Origin: an uncultured Gammaproteobacteria bacterium
Lineage (GTDB): Bacteria; Patescibacteriota; Microgenomatia; Levybacterales; GWA1-39-11
Assembly (NCBI GenBank): GCA_964627245.1
Contig: CAZVGS010000001.1
Location: 25,256-89,255, forward strand
Length of the DNA: 64,000 nt
Direction: 5' to 3'
Shown one piece after another: positions 8,555 to 59,644 of the stretch (position 1 is the first letter of the stretch; the number at the start of each line of letters is the position of its first letter). Position numbers and translations under genes: made by a program. The notes beneath the pieces were generated by a model, which worked only from the letters and a program-made list of their open reading frames with translations, had not been told where the DNA came from and made no database searches.

Positions 8555-9412
8555 TTATAAATTTGACAGAAAGGTCACTGTTTTTTGCTGTCTTATTATT
8601 GAGGCGACAAGATATGGGTTTTTCATTATTTCCTCACGCTCTTTAGGGTTTTCTATCGAATTTAGCGCTTTCTCAATGTCTTCTTTCTCGACAGTAACTT
8701 TCTCCTCATCTGCAACTTTTCTCAGGAAAAACTCCAGCTCTAAGTCTCTTTTAGCTTTTTCCTTGTACTCATCCCGCAGTTTGTCGCCGTCAAGGTTTTT
8801 AGAATTGAGATATTGATCAAGAGTCAGTCCAAGCTTTTTTAGCTCATCAAGAAGTTGTGATAAAAGACGTGATGTCTCACTCTCAACAAGTATTTGCGGG
8901 ATTTTAATATCAGCCTCTCCTATTGCAGCTGTTAGTATTTCATCAAGGTCAGTCTTTTTCTCTTCCTTTCCGGGGACGACAATTTTTGAGTTTGAACTCA
9001 CTTTTTTTACAGCTTCCTTATAATTATTCAGCTTTACCTCAGGCTCTTCACACGTTGAAGCTGTAAAAACTATATCTGTGCCGTCAGTGAAGACCTCAAT
9101 GTGTATCTGCGGACTCAAAATCGGATTCAGATTATTTTTCTTAATAGCCTCATTGTAAGCATGCCCTATGACTTTTTTAAGCATCTCCTCTCTTACAAGC
9201 TCCATGTTGAGTTTTGCTTTTGCAACGTTTTTTGGCGCTTGTCCGGGTCTAAAACCTGCAACCTTTACGTTTTTTATAAGCTCGTTTTCAACTTGATCCT
9301 GAGCTTTTCTTGCATCACTCCATGGAACAATAACCGTCAACTCGAGAGTGCCGTCAGCTTTTCTGTTAAGACCTTCTTTATGTGTTTTTGTAACGGGTTT
9401 TTTTTCTGCCAT
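8555..9412 (-). CDS. tig: Trigger factor, short form (N-terminal ribosome-binding domain plus C-terminal domain, no PPIase domain)
   Basis: GFRPGQAPKN matches the GFRPGK signature of the trigger factor N-domain. 285 aa against ~430 aa for canonical trigger factor. Confidence 0.75.
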   Translation of the reverse strand: MAEKKPVTKTHKEGLNRKADGTLELTVIVPWSDARKAQDQVENELIKNVKVAGFRPGQAPKNVAKAKLNMELVREEMLKKVIGHAYNEAIKKNNLNPILSPQIHIEVFTDGTDIVFTASTCEEPEVKLNNYKEAVKKVSSNSKIVVPGKEEKKTDLDEILTAAIGEADIKIPQILVESETSRLLSQLLDELKKLGLTLDQYLNSKNLDGDKLRDEYKEKAKRDLELEFFLRKVADEEKVTVEKEDIEKALNSIENPKEREEIMKNPYLVASIIRQQKTVTFLSNL

Positions 9413-19783: not shown

Positions 19784-20872
19784 GTGAAAAAATTTATTTT
19801 GCTATTCTTGGTAGTTCTTTTTCTGATAACACCGGTATCATCTTTTGCGCAAAGCAGCCCGGAATACATAGAAGCTAAAGTTATAGGAATTTCTGAGGAA
19901 AGTACAATTATAGAAAGCGACGGGTTTAAGCATCCTTACCAAAAACTCCAGTTTCTAGGGCAATCAGGATCCATGAAAGACAAAACATTCACGCTTGAAA
20001 ATGGATACTACAATCAAAGCACAATAGTAAGGTACAAAGTTGGAGATAAATTGGTCTTAACAAAAACTAAAGACCCATCAGGCAACAATCAGATACTAAT
20101 AGCTGACTACGTAAGAACTACTCCTCTTTTGCTTTTAGCAGTAATTTTTGTTCTGGTAACGGTTGTTATAGGGGGAAAAAGGGGGACTTTTTCTCTTGTT
20201 GGCATGGTACTCACCTTTGGTGCAATTTTCGTCTTCGTTCTGCCTCAAATTTCAGCAGGCCAAAATCCGATAGTAATAACAAGCGTTGCCGCGCTCGTTG
20301 TAATCCCCGTAACTTTTTTACTCGCTCACGGCTTTAACATAAAAACCTTTTGTGCAATTGGAAGTACATTTATTGTTCTTATATTTACGGGCTTTCTTTC
20401 CCAAATATTTATGAATTACACGCATCTCACAGGCTACGTAAGTGAAGAAGCGGCCTTTCTAAATACCATAAAGCAAGGCAGTCTTGATGCCCGCGGACTG
20501 CTTTTTGCAGGAATAATTGTGGCTCTTCTTGGGATACTTGAAGACATAACAATTTCCCAGTCAGCAATAGTCGTGCAGCTCGAAAAAGCCAATAAAAAGC
20601 TTTCCATAACCGATCTTTTTAGAAGAGCAATGGATATTGGAAAAGATCATATAGCTTCAATGGCAAACACATTAATTCTTGTTTATGCCGGCGCCTCACT
20701 CCCCCTACTATTGCTCTTTGTTAACAGCAGTGTGCCGATTGCGCAAGTTTTTAACTCGGAAATAGTTGCTGAAGAAATAGTAAGAACCCTAACTGCAAGT
20801 ATCGGACTTATTGTAGCAGTTCCAATAGCAACCCTTCTTACAGTACTGGTCGTCAAAAGAAAGTCTTTTTAA
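19784..20872 (+). CDS. YibE/F-like family membrane protein
   Basis: Signal peptide, a soluble N-domain, then polytopic TM segments containing GILEDITISQSA. Confidence 0.6.
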   Translation: MKKFILLFLVVLFLITPVSSFAQSSPEYIEAKVIGISEESTIIESDGFKHPYQKLQFLGQSGSMKDKTFTLENGYYNQSTIVRYKVGDKLVLTKTKDPSGNNQILIADYVRTTPLLLLAVIFVLVTVVIGGKRGTFSLVGMVLTFGAIFVFVLPQISAGQNPIVITSVAALVVIPVTFLLAHGFNIKTFCAIGSTFIVLIFTGFLSQIFMNYTHLTGYVSEEAAFLNTIKQGSLDARGLLFAGIIVALLGILEDITISQSAIVVQLEKANKKLSITDLFRRAMDIGKDHIASMANTLILVYAGASLPLLLLFVNSSVPIAQVFNSEIVAEEIVRTLTASIGLIVAVPIATLLTVLVVKRKSF

Positions 20873-45980: not shown

Positions 45981-46093
45981 ATTAAATAGTTATAAGATGT
46001 GAATTATAACTACTCTAGCCTATATTGTCAACTATAGGGTATCTATTAGGAATAATCAGTTATATTAAGTAGTGCCAGGTAAGGTTTGGCGAG

Positions 46094-53664: not shown

Positions 53665-54159
53665 ATGGACATGGAAAATCAGGCTCCAGCTCCAAAATCT
53701 TCATCAAAAACACCCATTATCCTCATTTCCGTGGTAGTTTTGATAATAATTGTCGGAGCTATTGTTTTCGCAATGTCCAACAAGCAGGAGGTTAACCAGA
53801 CAGCGGTTGACCAGACACCTGCTCCTACTTCCCAAGAAGTTGAAGCAACATCAGCAGGAGTTGAGTACAACAATGGCACCTATGACGCAGTAGGCAACTA
53901 CACTTCTCCCGGCGGAGAAGAGACCATCGACGTTACCCTGACACTTGCAGATGGCGTTATAACTGATGCAACAGTTGCATCAAATGCTACACGCCCAATT
54001 TCAAAACAAATGCAGTCCGCATTTATTGAAGGGTTCAAAGAACAGGTTGTTGGAAAAAACATTGATGAGGTCAATGTTACCAAGGTTTCAAGTTCATCAC
54101 TTACTCCAAAAGGATTTATGGACGCACTGGAAAAGGTTAAAACTCAAGCATCTGCTTAA
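53665..54159 (+). CDS. FMN-binding domain protein (membrane-anchored, extracytoplasmic)
   Basis: N-terminal TM, then a ~110-aa domain ending ...VTKVSSSSLTPKGFMDALEK. This resembles FMN_bind domains, which are flavinylated at a Thr/Ser. Confidence 0.6.
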   Translation: MDMENQAPAPKSSSKTPIILISVVVLIIIVGAIVFAMSNKQEVNQTAVDQTPAPTSQEVEATSAGVEYNNGTYDAVGNYTSPGGEETIDVTLTLADGVITDATVASNATRPISKQMQSAFIEGFKEQVVGKNIDEVNVTKVSSSSLTPKGFMDALEKVKTQASA

Positions 54160-55010
54160 TGCACTCCTTCTCATTTGAGGCAATCGGAACCCAATGGACA
54201 GTAGATATACCCGAAGAAAATAACCGCCTCATACAAGAAATACTTAGACTAATTGCTTCATTTGACAATACATACTCAAGATTCCGTAAAGACTCAACCA
54301 TCTCTAAAATTTCAAATAAGATCGGCAGGCACAAAGCACCCGCTGATTTTTTACCGCTTAAAGAAATTTATGAGAAACTTTATTTTCTAACGGACGGCCT
54401 TTTTACTCCGCTTGTCGGCTCACTTCTTGAGGATGCAGGATACGACAGCACTTACTCATTAATACCTAAAACCCTCAAGCCTATAGGAGAATTGGGAAAG
54501 TCAGTGATTTTTGCAGACTTAAATATTGATACTCTAGAGCCAATTACCCTTGATTTTGGGGCTTGCGGAAAAGGTTATCTCGTCGACAAAGTTGCTCATT
54601 TAATAAGCAAAAAAGGTGTAAAAAATTATTGCATAGATGCCGGAGGGGACATACTTGTCAAAGACACAGAAGTAACCCGCATTGGTCTTGAGCATCCCGA
54701 GGATGCCGGCAAGGTCATTGGTGTTGCTGAAATTAAGAATATGAGCATTTGCTCATCCTCAGGAAATAGAAGGAAGTGGGGGTCATATCACCATATATTA
54801 AATCCTAAGACGCTAAAACCTGCAGATGAGATCATAGCAACTTGGGTTGTAGCGGAAAAAACTATAGATGCAGACGCTTTAGCCACGGCTCTTTTTTTAC
54901 TGCCAAAGCCCGAAAGATACAAAGACTTCAAATTTGAGTATGTAATGTTGTATAAAGATTATAGTGCCATAAAATCACTAAATTTCCCAGGGCAATTATT
55001 TACAGCATGA
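54159..55010 (+). CDS. apbE: FAD:protein FMN transferase (ApbE family)
   Basis: MHSFSFEAIGTQWTVDI..., GACGKGY and IDAGGD are typical ApbE segments. Confidence 0.85.
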   Translation: MHSFSFEAIGTQWTVDIPEENNRLIQEILRLIASFDNTYSRFRKDSTISKISNKIGRHKAPADFLPLKEIYEKLYFLTDGLFTPLVGSLLEDAGYDSTYSLIPKTLKPIGELGKSVIFADLNIDTLEPITLDFGACGKGYLVDKVAHLISKKGVKNYCIDAGGDILVKDTEVTRIGLEHPEDAGKVIGVAEIKNMSICSSSGNRRKWGSYHHILNPKTLKPADEIIATWVVAEKTIDADALATALFLLPKPERYKDFKFEYVMLYKDYSAIKSLNFPGQLFTA

Positions 55011-56518
55011 ACCCGATTGATAATTTTCTCAACCGTTTTACAATGTACAGAGTGGTTGAGTATGGGTTGCTAACACTCACATGCTATTCATTCATTTTAA
55101 GCTTACTGAGCTCAATCTCATTCAATCCCTTAGAACTATTTACTACTCTTGCATCACTCACTTTTGCTTGCTATTTTTCAAATTTATTATTCGGAAAGCT
55201 CTTCAAAGTACCAATTAATGCTGAATCATCAATAATAACTGCTCTTATTTTGTTTTTTCTGCTTTGGCCGTCCAGCCAGATAGAAAGCGTATTACTCTTT
55301 CTTGCAGCCGGATTAATTGCAATGGCTTCAAAATATATTATTGCTTTTCGGGGAAAACACATATTCAATCCTGCAGCTGTCGCTGTTTTTTTGCTTATGT
55401 TCTTAAATAACGGCGCGATATGGTGGATTGCAACGCCATTTATGCTGCCTGCAGTACTTGTTGTGGGTCTGCTTATTGTTAGAAAAATACGAAGATTTAC
55501 CATGTTTTTTACTTTCTTAACAGTAAGCTTGTTAACTTTTCTTGGTTTTGTGGCACTTAATGGTAAAGACCCTATTGATGAATTAAAGATCTTTTATTTT
55601 TCTTTTCCGGTAGTTTTTTTGGGTACAGTTATGCTCACAGAACCGCTAACAACTCCTCCTACTAAAAAACTTCAAATCATTTACGCTGCAATTGTCGGAG
55701 TTATATTTTCTCTTCAAACTCCTCTTGGTCATTTCTATCCGACTCCTGAGGTAGCCATCCTTGTTGGTAATTTATTTTCATTTGCGGCAAGTCCGAAGTA
55801 CAAATTGAAGCTAAAACTTCTTAATAAAGTTGAAGTCGCAAAAAAAACACTTGAGTTTTCTTTCGAAAAACCCGCCAATTTTAGTTTTAGCCCCGGCCAG
55901 TACCTGGAATGGACATTGCCTATTCTAAGAACCGACGGAAGAGGAAATAGGCGCTATTTTACAATTGCATCCTCACCTACCGAAGACAAATTAAGACTTG
56001 CTGTCAAGCTCAACACTCCTTCAAGCACTTTCAAAAAGTTTCTCTCAAATCTTAAAGACAGCCAATTTATAACAGCAGGAAGTCTAGCGGGCGATTTCAC
56101 TCTAAAACATTCAAAAAAAAATAACTTGGTATTTATAGCCGGCGGAATTGGAATTACTCCTTTCAGAAGTATTATCAAAGAGCTGGTAGACAATAAAGAC
56201 ACAAGGAGGGTTGTCCTTTTCTACAGCAATAAAACTTCGGAGGAAATAGCCTATCAGGAATTTCTTGGGGATGCTTCTCAAAGAATCAATCTTGAAGTCG
56301 TGTACGTTCTAACCGAAACTGAAAACATACCCTCAAATTTTAGAGGAGAAAAAGGAAGAATAACAAGCCAAATGCTTTCAAAATACATAAAAAACACAGC
56401 AGATTGTGATTATTTTCTCTCAGGACCTATATCGATGGTTAACGGTTACAAAAGTCTGCTTAAATCAATGAATGCTAACGGAAAAAATATTTTTACCGAC
56501 TATTTTCCCGGGTTTTAG
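55007..56518 (+). CDS. Membrane-anchored ferredoxin-NADP-reductase-like oxidoreductase (polytopic N-domain plus FAD/NAD(P)-binding C-domain)
   Basis: ~8 TM segments (aa 1-280). Then RRYFTIASSP (RxYS FAD motif) and GGIGITPFRSII (NAD(P) motif). Confidence 0.7.
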   Translation: MNPIDNFLNRFTMYRVVEYGLLTLTCYSFILSLLSSISFNPLELFTTLASLTFACYFSNLLFGKLFKVPINAESSIITALILFFLLWPSSQIESVLLFLAAGLIAMASKYIIAFRGKHIFNPAAVAVFLLMFLNNGAIWWIATPFMLPAVLVVGLLIVRKIRRFTMFFTFLTVSLLTFLGFVALNGKDPIDELKIFYFSFPVVFLGTVMLTEPLTTPPTKKLQIIYAAIVGVIFSLQTPLGHFYPTPEVAILVGNLFSFAASPKYKLKLKLLNKVEVAKKTLEFSFEKPANFSFSPGQYLEWTLPILRTDGRGNRRYFTIASSPTEDKLRLAVKLNTPSSTFKKFLSNLKDSQFITAGSLAGDFTLKHSKKNNLVFIAGGIGITPFRSIIKELVDNKDTRRVVLFYSNKTSEEIAYQEFLGDASQRINLEVVYVLTETENIPSNFRGEKGRITSQMLSKYIKNTADCDYFLSGPISMVNGYKSLLKSMNANGKNIFTDYFPGF

Positions 56519-56555
56519 GATTGACTTTATAAAGATATTCACATAGTATTTTGTT

Positions 56556-57071
56556 GTGAAGAAAATTGTAATTGCCCTCTCCTTGTTGTCTGCTTTACTC
56601 CTTATTGCTCTCGTTTTTGTTTTATTTAACAAACAGATCAACATTACTATTCCTCAAATAAATTTTTCAAATTTGAAAATGCCCGATGTAACACCCTTAC
56701 CCACAAACACAATGCTTGATGAACTTTCCGAAAATTCCATCGACAAAGATGTAAACGGAAGCAAAAGAATAGAAGCAAAAGGCATAACAATGGGAGGAAT
56801 CAAGCAAGGAGTAATCGAAGCCTCAAATTTTAAGTTTACTCCCGATGCCATACAAGTCAATGAAGGCGATACTGTAGTTATTACGATAAAAAACGTTCAG
56901 GGATTGCACGATTTCGTTATTGATGAGTTAGGAATTAAGACCAAAACACTTAAAGAAGGTGAATCTGAAGAAATTACATTTGTTGCTTCAAAAAAAGGTA
57001 CTTTCAACTTTTACAGCTCTATCGGTCAGCACAGGGTAATGGGAATGGAAGGAACCATGATAGTTAACTAG
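56556..57071 (+). CDS. Cupredoxin-fold protein lacking the canonical Cys ligand
   Basis: N-terminal TM. FKFTPDAIQVNEGDTVV...HDF...FYSSIGQHRVMGMEGTMIV aligns to plastocyanin/azurin-type His..Cys..His..Met sites with Ser in the Cys position. The protein has no Cys at all. Confidence 0.6.
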   Translation: MKKIVIALSLLSALLLIALVFVLFNKQINITIPQINFSNLKMPDVTPLPTNTMLDELSENSIDKDVNGSKRIEAKGITMGGIKQGVIEASNFKFTPDAIQVNEGDTVVITIKNVQGLHDFVIDELGIKTKTLKEGESEEITFVASKKGTFNFYSSIGQHRVMGMEGTMIVN

Positions 57072-57999
57072 CTTTTCTATCCTCAAATCTCTTCTTAACT
57101 ACCTCAAATACATCTTTAATCCTGGTTGTGACCACTTCAAAAGTCGTTCTTTTCTTACAGATAAATTCTAAATTTTCTATGTCATCTTTTGAAGGTGTTA
57201 ATACATCAGTGGTTTGAGGGTACATGATAGATTTTGAATTTACGCTGTGATCAAGACCCAGCGCGTGCCCAAATTCGTGAGTTAGGGTGTGAAGGAACTC
57301 TTCGTGTGAAACGTCAATATAAATGCTGATCTTCCTGCTCTTCCCATCCTGCTCGTAGAGTCCTTCTTCAGGCTTTGTTACCAAAACTCCCTGATAATCA
57401 TCAATCGTATTATTTAGATATCTTGCGTTTGAATTATAGTCACTAGTCTCTTGTCCTAAAGCCTGAGCCTCAGCTGTCAAAGCTTCTGCCTCCCTCTTTA
57501 ACTCCTCCTGCCTTGCAATCAGCTTATCAAACTCTTCCTTAGGAGCACCCCCTTGTGAATTCCAGTAAGAAATGTCCGCGTTAAGTGACTTTACTTTTTG
57601 TTCAAACTCTAGCTTTCTTGTCTTGTAGTCTTCGATCTTGGGGTCAATCTCACTCTGCTTTTGCTTTAAGTCCTCACTCAAATCGTTGATTTTACTTGTT
57701 AATTCCTGCCTATTGTCATAAACCATGTTTATGGTAAAAGATGATTTAGGGTCGTACTGCAGTAAGTTTTTATTAAGTGCCTTATTCCAAATTCCGGCTG
57801 CAATCTTAGTGTCTTCCAATAACTCCTCAGCTGTAGTATTAAATCCCGAGTCAATTGTTCCGATTGAGTAAGTTATGGGCGTATCGCACGGTGAATAGTA
57901 GAAGACGCTGTTAAAAGCAGATTGAACTTGAGATCTAAAGAAAATAGCTGAAAGAACCGACACCAATAAAATAAAAATAGCTATAAAAATCTTTCTCAT
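57064..57999 (-). CDS. Secreted metzincin zinc metalloprotease (matrixin/M10-like)
   Basis: HEFGHALGLDHS (HExxHxxGxxH) followed by a Met-turn SIMYP. N-terminal signal/TM. Coiled-coil middle region. Confidence 0.8.
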   Translation of the reverse strand: MRKIFIAIFILLVSVLSAIFFRSQVQSAFNSVFYYSPCDTPITYSIGTIDSGFNTTAEELLEDTKIAAGIWNKALNKNLLQYDPKSSFTINMVYDNRQELTSKINDLSEDLKQKQSEIDPKIEDYKTRKLEFEQKVKSLNADISYWNSQGGAPKEEFDKLIARQEELKREAEALTAEAQALGQETSDYNSNARYLNNTIDDYQGVLVTKPEEGLYEQDGKSRKISIYIDVSHEEFLHTLTHEFGHALGLDHSVNSKSIMYPQTTDVLTPSKDDIENLEFICKKRTTFEVVTTRIKDVFEVVKKRFEDRKAS

Positions 58000-58047
58000 A
58001 ATTAATTTTAATAGCTTCCTTTACTAATGTCTATTATCCGACTTATT

Positions 58048-58917
58048 TCAGCGCTCCTCATCGAAGTAACTGTCAAAGTTAGACTCTTTCAAGTATTCGT
58101 AGCTCTCAGAATTTACTTCTCCGCGCTGCGCGCTCTCAGAAGCGTGTCGATGAATATCAGGGAGCAGAGAATGTAGGGATGATATTGCAATAAAAGTCAA
58201 CAGTATGCCACCAAGAAGTGCAAAAGTCTCAGCAAGCGCAAATCCCTTTCTGTTTTCGTGGTGGATTTCAGGTATAAGGTTTGATAAGGAAATGTAAAGG
58301 AAAAACCCAGCAGCAATTGCAACGAATACAACAGAAAGACTAGTAAAAGAGGATCCTAAATAAAAAGTAATAATTGCTCCAACTACCGAAACCGAAGCAC
58401 TTAAGACATTGATGAATAAGATATTTTTTCTCGCAAGACCCTTCTTAAGAAGTACCCCAAAATCCCCTATTTCTTGAGGAATTTCGTGTGCCCCAACAAC
58501 AAGTGCAGTAATTATACCTACTGGCATATTAATCAAAAAAGCTGATGCAATAGCAATTCCATCGACGAAATTGTGAATAGTATCTCCTATCACTATCATT
58601 GCAACAATAGGCTCTCTCGAACCTACTTCATCATGTGTGTGCTGCCAATGAAGAATTCTCTCAAGTAAATAAAAAACAACAATTCCAACTAGCGTAAATA
58701 GATAAAAATTGCTAACTCCGATTGTTTCTTCAGATTGATGAAGACCTTCCGGTAAAATTTCAAAAAAAACAGCTCCCAAAAGAGTTCCCGCAGCAAAAGA
58801 GGACAAAATATGAGCTATTTTAACTACTTTTTTGTTCAATAGTAAAAGTATGCCCCCGGCAAGCGAAAATACACTGCCGATAATTACAAACAAAACAATA
58901 TATGCTAATAAATTCAT
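58048..58917 (-). CDS. ZIP-family metal (Zn2+) transporter (ZupT-like)
   Basis: HNFVDGIAIA and HEIPQEIGDFGVLL are ZIP signature helices. Confidence 0.85.
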   Translation of the reverse strand: MNLLAYIVLFVIIGSVFSLAGGILLLLNKKVVKIAHILSSFAAGTLLGAVFFEILPEGLHQSEETIGVSNFYLFTLVGIVVFYLLERILHWQHTHDEVGSREPIVAMIVIGDTIHNFVDGIAIASAFLINMPVGIITALVVGAHEIPQEIGDFGVLLKKGLARKNILFINVLSASVSVVGAIITFYLGSSFTSLSVVFVAIAAGFFLYISLSNLIPEIHHENRKGFALAETFALLGGILLTFIAISSLHSLLPDIHRHASESAQRGEVNSESYEYLKESNFDSYFDEER

Positions 58918-59333
58918 AGGTTGTTATTTCTACATTCTTTACAAATTCCAAAAAACTCTAAAGAATGGTTTTCTGTCTTAAATCCAAGCTTTTCCTCCAA
59001 TTTTCTTTCAGCTCTTTTCATAGAACATCTTCCAACGTCCTCGATCTTACCGCATTTATTGCAGATAGCGTGGTGATGATCTTTTCTCATTATCTCATAG
59101 TAGAATTTCTTTTTTTGCAATTGAAGTCTTCTTACAACATCTTTGTCGATGTAATTTTCAATTATCCTATAAATTGTTGCCTGGTCGGCGTCTACATGGC
59201 TCTTTGCTACTTCTTTATATATTGAGGCTATATCAAGAGGTCCTTGATGCTCTTCCAGGATCTTTAGTACAGCAATTCTTGCAGGGGTAATACGAAGCCC
59301 TATGCTTTTTATAGTCTCTTTTTGAGAAATCAT
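58914..59333 (-). CDS. Fur-family metalloregulator (probably Zur)
   Basis: Winged-helix N-domain and a C-terminal HHHAICNKCGKI...C metal site. Start set at MISQKE, directly after the promoter. The tracked upstream extension would cover the promoter. Confidence 0.8.
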   Translation of the reverse strand: MISQKETIKSIGLRITPARIAVLKILEEHQGPLDIASIYKEVAKSHVDADQATIYRIIENYIDKDVVRRLQLQKKKFYYEIMRKDHHHAICNKCGKIEDVGRCSMKRAERKLEEKLGFKTENHSLEFFGICKECRNNNL

Positions 59334-59339
59334 GAATAA

Positions 59340-59368
59340 ATTATATGCAAATGATTTGCATTTGTCAA
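59340..59368 (-). promoter_or_regulatory. Consensus promoter (TTGACA-17-TATAAT) with a perfect Fur/Zur-box-like palindrome in the spacer; leaderless fur-zip operon
   Basis: Minus-strand read: TTGACAaATGCAAATCATTTGCATATAATttattcATG. The 17-bp palindrome ATGCAAAT-G-ATTTGCAT spans 59345-59361. The -10 lies 6 nt before the ATG. Confidence 0.65.
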
Positions 59369-59467
59369 TCACCCTTATACACATTAACAGACCAGCAATG
59401 TGGTCTGTTAATGATTATGTAGTGCATAATAAGTATGCACTGTTGCTTTACAAAGCAAATCTTTCAA

Positions 59468-59644
59468 CTAAACGCTAACTGAATCGTATGCGTCTTTAGA
59501 AACAAAGCGGGTCAAATTCCTTCCATCTGATGTCTTTCCTTTTACTGCGTATTTAGTCTGTCCTTTTACTTGGTAAGTGGTTTTTTCGGTAACTTCAGCG
59601 TCAACTTTGCTTCTTGTTTTTACATCGTAGAATTGCATTTTCAT
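59468..59644 (-). CDS. Unannotated small ORF (58 aa), Lys-rich
   Basis: Own translation: MKMQFYDVKTRSKVDAEVTEKTTYQVKGQTKYAVKGKTSDGRNLTRFVSKDAYDSVSV. SD GGAGGTGA 9 nt upstream. A TTGACA-17-CATATT element lies ~120 nt upstream. It falls below the ORF-track length cutoff. Confidence 0.45.
   Translation of the reverse strand: MKMQFYDVKTRSKVDAEVTEKTTYQVKGQTKYAVKGKTSDGRNLTRFVSKDAYDSVSV

Follow-up and report, generated by a model that had tools for sequence, protein, structure and literature searches.

A candidate zinc-responsive fur-zip operon in a Levybacteria-like genome, with its predicted operator inside the promoter spacer

In Corynebacterium glutamicum the transcripts of three Zur targets (cg0042, cg0043, and cg2911) have been mapped by rapid amplification of cDNA 5′ ends (5′-RACE) to the A of the ATG, so that these genes are leaderless, and their Zur boxes lie over the core promoter (PMC2823685). 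This regulon is the closest experimentally mapped precedent for the subject of the present report, a fur-zip gene pair in a 64-kb stretch of contig CAZVGS010000001.1 (assembly GCA_964627245.1; hereafter the window). The two systems would have in common a Fur-family zinc repressor, a palindromic box overlapping the core promoter of zinc-uptake genes, and leaderless transcripts; they differ in box sequence, in phylum (C. glutamicum belongs to the Actinobacteria), and in that the leaderless targets named there exclude zur itself, whereas the window's operon opens with the regulator gene and carries an importer of the ZIP family. We found no mention of autoregulation in the C. glutamicum paper (PMC2823685). 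Homologs of the window's regulator carry the name Candidatus Levybacteria in public records, and we favor, with a probability of about 0.7, the reading that this is a zinc-responsive, negatively autoregulated two-gene zur-zip operon of a Levybacteria-like bacterium of the candidate phyla radiation (CPR).

The box itself also has described relatives. The sequence ATGCAACnnnGTTGCAT was predicted in 2004 by Rodionov et al. as the Zur box of the Desulfovibrio znuABC-zur operon (PMC545781). Its length of 17 bp, its palindromic form, and its outer arms, ATGCAA...TTGCAT, are those of the box in the window, and it too precedes an operon encoding both a zinc importer and its own Fur-family regulator; in contrast, the Desulfovibrio box has other central five bases (AATNATT here), serves the importer ZnuABC in an operon where the regulator is the last gene, and lies 47-216 nt upstream of the start, outside the promoter spacer. 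Text searches of the literature did not find the exact window box as a named Zur box. A further comparison is with Bacillus subtilis, for which Fuangthong and Helmann in 2003 reportedly described 7-1-7 operators of Fur (TGATAAT-N-ATTATCA), PerR (TTATAAT-N-ATTATAA), and Zur (TCGTAAT-N-ATTACGA). Specificity among these operators comes from positions 2-4 of each arm. The window site, TGCAAAT-N-ATTTGCA, has the same 7-1-7 geometry and the same AAT-N-ATT core, but its TGCA arm would constitute a fourth specificity class. A ZIP/ZupT importer is likewise familiar as a Zur target under zinc starvation, for example zupT of Cupriavidus metallidurans; there, however, zupT is not known to share an operon with zur, and the window's ZIP protein scores 62 bits on the ZupT equivalog model, for which the cut-off is 252. 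Motif class and design are already known, the locus is a very clean but ordinary example of them, and knowledge of Zur regulation is unchanged by it.

Read on the minus strand, the control region runs GGGTGA, TTGACA, AATGCAAATCATTTGCA, TATAAT, TTATTC, ATG ATT TCT CAA (coordinates of all features are collected in Table 1). A promoter scan found the 12/12 match with a 17-nt spacer to be the sole such site in the 4-kb region. An earlier note on this DNA had described a consensus TTGACA/TATAAT promoter followed after 6 nt by the ATG, with no Shine-Dalgarno (SD) sequence, and both statements can be read directly from the sequence (the promoter occupies 59368-59340, and the 6 nt are TTATTC). It had also described the palindrome as filling the spacer exactly; the palindrome does lie between the hexamers, but the fit is off by one base, since positions 2-17 of the spacer are taken up together with the first T of the -10 hexamer.

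The arrangement is conserved. We aligned on the start codon a set of orthologs consisting of the window and 7 further distinct loci, with regulators 57-81% identical, all of which share one gene order: a 58-amino-acid (aa) protein, Fur, ZIP, and Peptidase_M10, followed by a convergent cupredoxin gene. Specifically, i) the box is found in the spacer of 8/8 promoters, at the identical position, with 0-3 deviations from perfect symmetry; ii) the -10 hexamer is TATA[AC]T and is followed by exactly 6 nt to the ATG (GTG in one locus) in 8/8; iii) those 6 nt vary (TTATTC, TTATTT, TTAGTA, TTAAAC, AAGTGC, AGACTT, TATTGT, and TTTCAC) and are never SD-like; and iv) sequence 5′ of the -35 hexamer is not conserved among the 8 loci.

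The two products are recognizable at the family level, the regulator as a member of the Fur superfamily (PF01475, 87.8 bits against a cut-off of 23.1, residues 11-127 of 139) and the second protein as a ZIP transporter (PF02535, 126.3 bits against a cut-off of 35.1) whose translation contains HNFVDG and HEIPQEIGD, the metal site of transmembrane segments 4 and 5 (TM4/TM5), together with the loop HWQHTHDE. The regulator gene overlaps the importer gene, as the earlier note had it: stop and start share the four letters ATGA, no SD precedes the ZIP gene, and an overlap of 4 nt or 1 nt is retained in the orthologs. The ZIP protein is probably translated by coupling.

We infer DNA binding, the metal sensed, the start of transcription, and translational coupling from sequence, and on that footing the operon would work as follows. 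A metal-loaded dimer of the Fur-family protein, most likely carrying zinc, would bind the 17-bp palindrome in the promoter spacer and so keep RNA polymerase off; when zinc drops, the repressor would leave the DNA and the strong promoter would fire; the transcript would have the A of the ATG as its first base, so that ribosomes would have to initiate without a Shine-Dalgarno sequence; the ZIP importer would be made by termination and reinitiation at the ATGA overlap; and incoming zinc would reload newly made repressor, closing the loop.

Table 1. Features of the candidate operon and its surroundings (window coordinates)
Feature	Position	Strand	Basis or remark
-35 hexamer TTGACA	59368-59363	minus	Promoter scan; TTGAC[AT] in 7/8 orthologous promoters, TTGATT in L205
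Spacer, 17 nt	59362-59346	minus	Between -35 and -10
-10 hexamer TATAAT	59345-59340	minus	Promoter scan; TATAAT or TATACT in every ortholog
Operator ATGCAAATcATTTGCAT (= ATGCAAATNATTTGCAT), perfect 8-1-8 palindrome	59361-59345	minus	Candidate Zur-type binding site
Operator, plus-strand reading ATGCAAATGATTTGCAT	59345-59361	plus	
Regulator start codon ATG	59331..59333	minus	A = 59333, 7th nt past -10
Fur-family regulator, 139 aa, proposed Zur	58914-59333	minus	Pfam FUR 7.8e-25
ZIP-family metal importer, 289 aa	58048-58917	minus	Pfam Zip 2e-36
Promoter-like signal of the metzincin gene: TAGACA, 17 nt, TAAAAT, 5 nt to ATG at 57999	58005-58033	minus	
Matrixin-type metzincin, 311 aa, hydrophobic N-terminus, coiled-coil insert	57064-57999	minus	Peptidase_M10 4.9e-9
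Three tandem hairpins between the 58-aa gene and the promoter	59372-59467	minus	-32.9 kcal/mol, z = -5.4
Basic protein, 58 aa (56-59 aa in the loci), always upstream of zur	59468-59644	minus	Strong SD AAAGGAGGTGA

Both the operator and the regulator clade are associated, as judged from gene neighborhoods, with zinc-uptake genes. A scan of species-representative genomes for the exact box returned at least 120 stretches with at least 124 boxes. Among the matches listed, the hosts are chiefly Clostridia, Cyanobacteria/Melainabacteria, and CPR lineages; many boxes have the longer flanks TAAATGCAAATNATTTGCATTTA; and about 110 of the 124 fall outside long open reading frames (ORFs), although chance 17-mers would mostly land inside genes. 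The same matches supply 150 flanking ORFs, which by Pfam include ZnuA (33), FUR (19), cobW/COG0523 (5), Zip (4), and CbiM (4) and whose best NCBIfam scores are of zinc type (AdcA, AztC, and the zinc chaperone ZigA at 8.7e-192), giving in all 31-33 ORFs of ZnuA/AdcA/AztC type, 4-5 of ZigA/COG0523 type, and 4 of ZIP type. At least 33 exact-box loci contain a Fur-family ORF that matches the clade profile, at least 15 of them also with a ZnuA-like gene no farther than 8 kb from the box, and several Saccharibacteria have the box between a ZIP gene and a Fur gene that point away from each other. The regulator tells much the same story: in 80 metagenomic loci of distant relatives (32-46% identity), the gene directly 3′ of the regulator encodes a ZIP protein in 31 and a ZnuA-like protein in 26 (57/80 together). 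These associations favor the Zur-type repression design that the earlier note had proposed.

The box is thus widespread, but the operator-in-spacer layout appears to be a trait of this CPR group, because only one of the 120 exact-box loci listed, L113 from a Woykebacteria genome, has the box in the spacer (there TTGACA...TATATT precedes fur and zip genes that likewise overlap by 4 nt). Promoter and operator are fused in 32/80 distant relatives, most commonly in the reading TTGACAaATGCAACTAAGTTGCATATAcT, and the variant ATGCAACTAAGTTGCAT of distant CPR relatives is exactly the Desulfovibrio palindrome. Many distant relatives (L122, L132, L134, L139, L144, L150, and L165) have a second box right after the -10 hexamer, that is, tandem operators (TATACTAAATGCAATTAAATTGCATTT), unlike the Levybacteria-like loci, which have a single box.

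Several observations weigh against zinc and against the name Zur. First, the box has no second copy, either in the 64-kb window at up to 3 mismatches or across some 80 kb of contigs from the orthologous loci, and relaxed searches of both (3-4 mismatches, or the arms ATGCAA-N5-TTGCAT) returned the promoter site only; the earlier note had offered the box as a candidate regulon motif, but no wider regulon is visible in this DNA, and no lineage regulon supports the assignment. Second, in a profile search the closest solved structure is B. subtilis PerR (2fe3, 5.5e-26), with Fur proteins next and solved Zur proteins lower (MtFurB, the Mycobacterium FurB/Zur, 1.5e-17; Streptomyces ScZur, 1.9e-14; EcZur, 4.7e-12). 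Third, every NCBIfam equivalog model scores far below its cut-off, and the PerR model (87.5 bits, cut-off 180) and the Fur model outscore Zur (enterobacterial model NF008646, 45.3 bits, cut-off 167). Fourth, the ligand set E80/H86/H88/D99 looks Fur/PerR-like; in Mycobacterium and Streptomyces Zur the sensing site is Asp/Cys/His/His, with the Cys position present in Bacillus Zur as well, and by hand alignment that Cys position would here be Glu80, both His residues (H86 and H88) being present. Fifth, ZIP/ZupT carriers and ZnuA-family binding proteins can take manganese or iron besides zinc.

We also tried to assign the regulator to Zur, Fur, or PerR from the protein alone, and neither the NCBIfam nor the PDB comparison assigns one. 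Zur function is polyphyletic in the Fur family, so the miss on the Zur equivalog model lowers the claim of subfamily membership and has no bearing on the mechanism. Protein similarity by itself names no metal, and it is the operator and the gene context that support the name Zur. What the protein does show, in an alignment of 48 sequences, is an invariant structural Cys4 zinc site made of two CxxC pairs (C91/C94 and C131/C134), together with an invariant HHH motif (H86-H88) and invariant E80, D99, H123, E126, P32, and an extra C103.

Could the same architecture and the same autoregulation answer to another signal, either Fe2+ or Mn2+ (a Fur or Mur type) or peroxide (a PerR type), with the ZIP protein importing that metal? 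The ranking of PerR and then Fur in the structure and NCBIfam comparisons would fit, as would the 2fe3 alignment, in which E80, H86, H88, and D99 fall on PerR D85, H91, H93, and D104, and the broad metal range of ZIP/ZupT carriers. Yet the identical operator is tied across phyla to AdcA/AztC-type proteins and ZigA zinc chaperones, the clade is coupled with ZIP or ZnuA operons in the 57 relatives counted above, and neither peroxide-defense nor iron-uptake genes adjoin the box in the Levybacteria-like loci. In PerR, His37 and His91 are the metal ligands oxidized by peroxide, and His37 is required for peroxide sensing; the position of His37 is occupied by the invariant Pro32 in the window's regulator, which argues against peroxide sensing. 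We therefore consider another signal unlikely, and zinc the probable one.

The seventh base after a -10 hexamer is the usual start of sigma-70 transcription, and here that base is the A of the ATG (59333), predicting a leaderless mRNA. Leaderless starts may be a habit of this genome. Among 56 non-overlapping long ORFs of the window, the distance from the end of a -10-like hexamer to a candidate start is 6 nt for 9 genes and 7 nt for 4, and other distances account for about 1-2 genes each; such starts include those at 9412, 10407, 34061, 47467, 53456, 57999, and 59333 on the minus strand and at 19784, 21219, and 22203 on the plus strand. SD-like motifs are not enriched (11/56 vs about 25% expected by chance) and are no commoner than at internal codons. 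Leaderless initiation thus appears, from these counts, to be the default for operon-leading genes of this Levybacteria-like genome, and because it is a genome habit a leaderless operon is credible, yet not special to this locus. Our literature search found nothing relevant on leaderless translation in Patescibacteria. The G+C content of the window is about 39%, and transfer RNA (tRNA) genes are numerous in it.

A second alternative denies the leaderless start: transcription would begin at a more distant upstream site, with read-through out of the 58-aa gene as one example, the hexamers would be mere operator flanks, and the operator would act as a roadblock. The intervening hairpins lack a T-run, so that termination is perhaps leaky, and the reading frame in the window is open upstream to 59384. 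Against this stand the 12/12 promoter with its 17-nt spacer, expected 0.09 times per window; the retention of hexamers and 6-nt distance in all 8 loci, in contrast with the variable sequence of those 6 nt, which is never an SD; the recurrence of the same -10-to-start spacing in other genes of the window; the three strong hairpins (z = -5.4) between the operon and the 58-aa gene; and locus L201, where an in-frame TAA within the box shuts the frame, so that no upstream start codon is possible there. We regard upstream transcription as quite improbable, and the leaderless start of the zur-zip operon, which the earlier note had proposed, as the better account of the constant gap, the absent SD, the TAA of L201, and the peak at 6-7 nt in the window.

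The reading that an AT-rich spacer produced the palindrome by chance, and that it has no operator function, gains something from the number of perfect 8-1-8 palindromes in the window (4 vs 1.27 expected, 2 of the 4 within tRNA genes, so that such a palindrome by itself is unremarkable), but is effectively refuted, its probability being negligible, by position-by-position conservation of the box in the orthologs, by the presence of this box, or one akin to it, at the corresponding place in the promoter of 32/80 distant relatives, and, among the matches listed, by the strong enrichment of copies elsewhere beside zinc-uptake and Fur-family genes. For the arrangement as a whole, chance is excluded because it is conserved in 8 distinct orthologous loci.

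Other promoters and palindromes of the window deserve brief mention. Perfect TTGACA-17-TATAAT promoters number 4, the operon promoter and 3 others on the minus strand with -35 hexamers starting at 46031, 29999, and 11418; right after the last of these comes a hairpin with a nine-T run (about 11383-11335), which points to a tiny RNA or an attenuator. The perfect palindrome GATGCAACAGTTGCATC at 53965-53981, within an ORF, has ATGCAA/TTGCAT arms as in the Zur-type box around a center of 3 nt instead of 5, and is probably due to chance.

We wish to raise, as a tentative and rather doubtful generalization, that zinc control in Levybacteria and related Microgenomates has shrunk to one cassette: a Zur variant with Fur/PerR-like oxygen and nitrogen ligands (Glu for Cys, extra Cys103), acting at an operator in the promoter spacer and made from a leaderless mRNA that encodes only itself and the ZIP importer, in a lineage where leaderless initiation without an SD is the default, and with the secreted metzincin, always adjacent, perhaps tied functionally to zinc supply. 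Of more immediate use, an uncultured lineage of a candidate phylum gains in this locus a clean, conserved pairing of promoter and operator, which could act as a positive control when CPR promoters, leaderless starts, or metal regulons are defined from metagenome-assembled genomes.

It also exposes a recurring annotation error, in which N-terminal extensions are translated promoter DNA. A longer regulator ORF of 156 aa (to 59384) was rejected as an artefact, as it runs through the promoter; exact look-ups of this 156-aa form and of the window's ZIP protein returned no identical record. Among 79 database homologs, 10 are 152-157 aa long (P0001, P0005, P0008, P0009, P0013, P0021, P0026, P0032, P0035, and P0038), and their extra N-terminus (MCIRVIDKCKSFAYNLFM and similar) is the promoter and operator in translation; in one example, IDKCKSFAYNLFM, it is TTGACA-box-TATAAT that has been translated. 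These extensions look like a systematic start-codon error for leaderless genes.

Downstream of the pair, the metzincin is identified by its HEFGHALGLDH (HExxHxxGxxH) and SIMYP Met-turn motifs and by a Peptidase_M10 score of 36.7 bits (cut-off 24). The earlier note had it following the regulator and ZIP genes. The adjacency is real, the start being 48 nt past the end of the ZIP gene and the position syntenic in all Levybacteria-like loci, but operon membership is not borne out: a -10-like hexamer (TAAAAT or TACAAT), with no conserved SD, lies 5-8 nt ahead of the metzincin start in 6/7 loci; no box was found at the promoter-like signal in the window or the orthologous loci; and a metzincin lies nearby in 0/80 distant relatives and in none of the 120 exact-box loci listed. 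In locus L207 the ZIP-metzincin gap is 7 nt only, with no clear -10 signal. Box matches with 4 mismatches at the metzincin start of L201 and L209 correspond to MKKI codons, lack the GCA arms, and were judged to be chance. A scan of the locus found no terminator-like site between ZIP and metzincin, and read-through is possible on that account. By its signals, then, the metzincin gene is probably transcribed on its own, not under the box, and possibly also by read-through. Since the whole neighborhood is syntenic in Levybacteria, adjacency need not mean shared function.

Upstream, the three tandem hairpins fill the 96 nt from the stop of the 58-aa gene to the -35 hexamer and probably act as a terminator or insulator, so that control of the operon stays with its own promoter. 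The third (59382-59413), with the 13-bp stem CATTAACAGRCCA/TGGYCTGTTAATG, was seen solely at this locus among all DNA fetched; its stem is conserved in 8/8 loci, with one compensatory pair, and its loop varies in length. We had entertained it as a second protein operator and rejected this, as a loop of varying length fits a hairpin better than DNA bound by a dimer; an unusual terminator is one possible identity, an RNA element another. Rfam reported tRNAs only around the locus.

The basic 58-aa protein has no Pfam or NCBIfam match, and the strong SD of its gene is unlike most genes of the window. Convergent on the metzincin gene is a plus-strand cluster (54159-57071), kept in the orthologous loci, that encodes ApbE, a 503-aa protein, and a secreted cupredoxin; in orthologs the 503-aa protein matches Pfam NAD_binding_1, with a faint NQR2_RnfD_RnfE match in L203, and from its composition the cluster may be a redox module that works outside the cytoplasm of a CPR bacterium.

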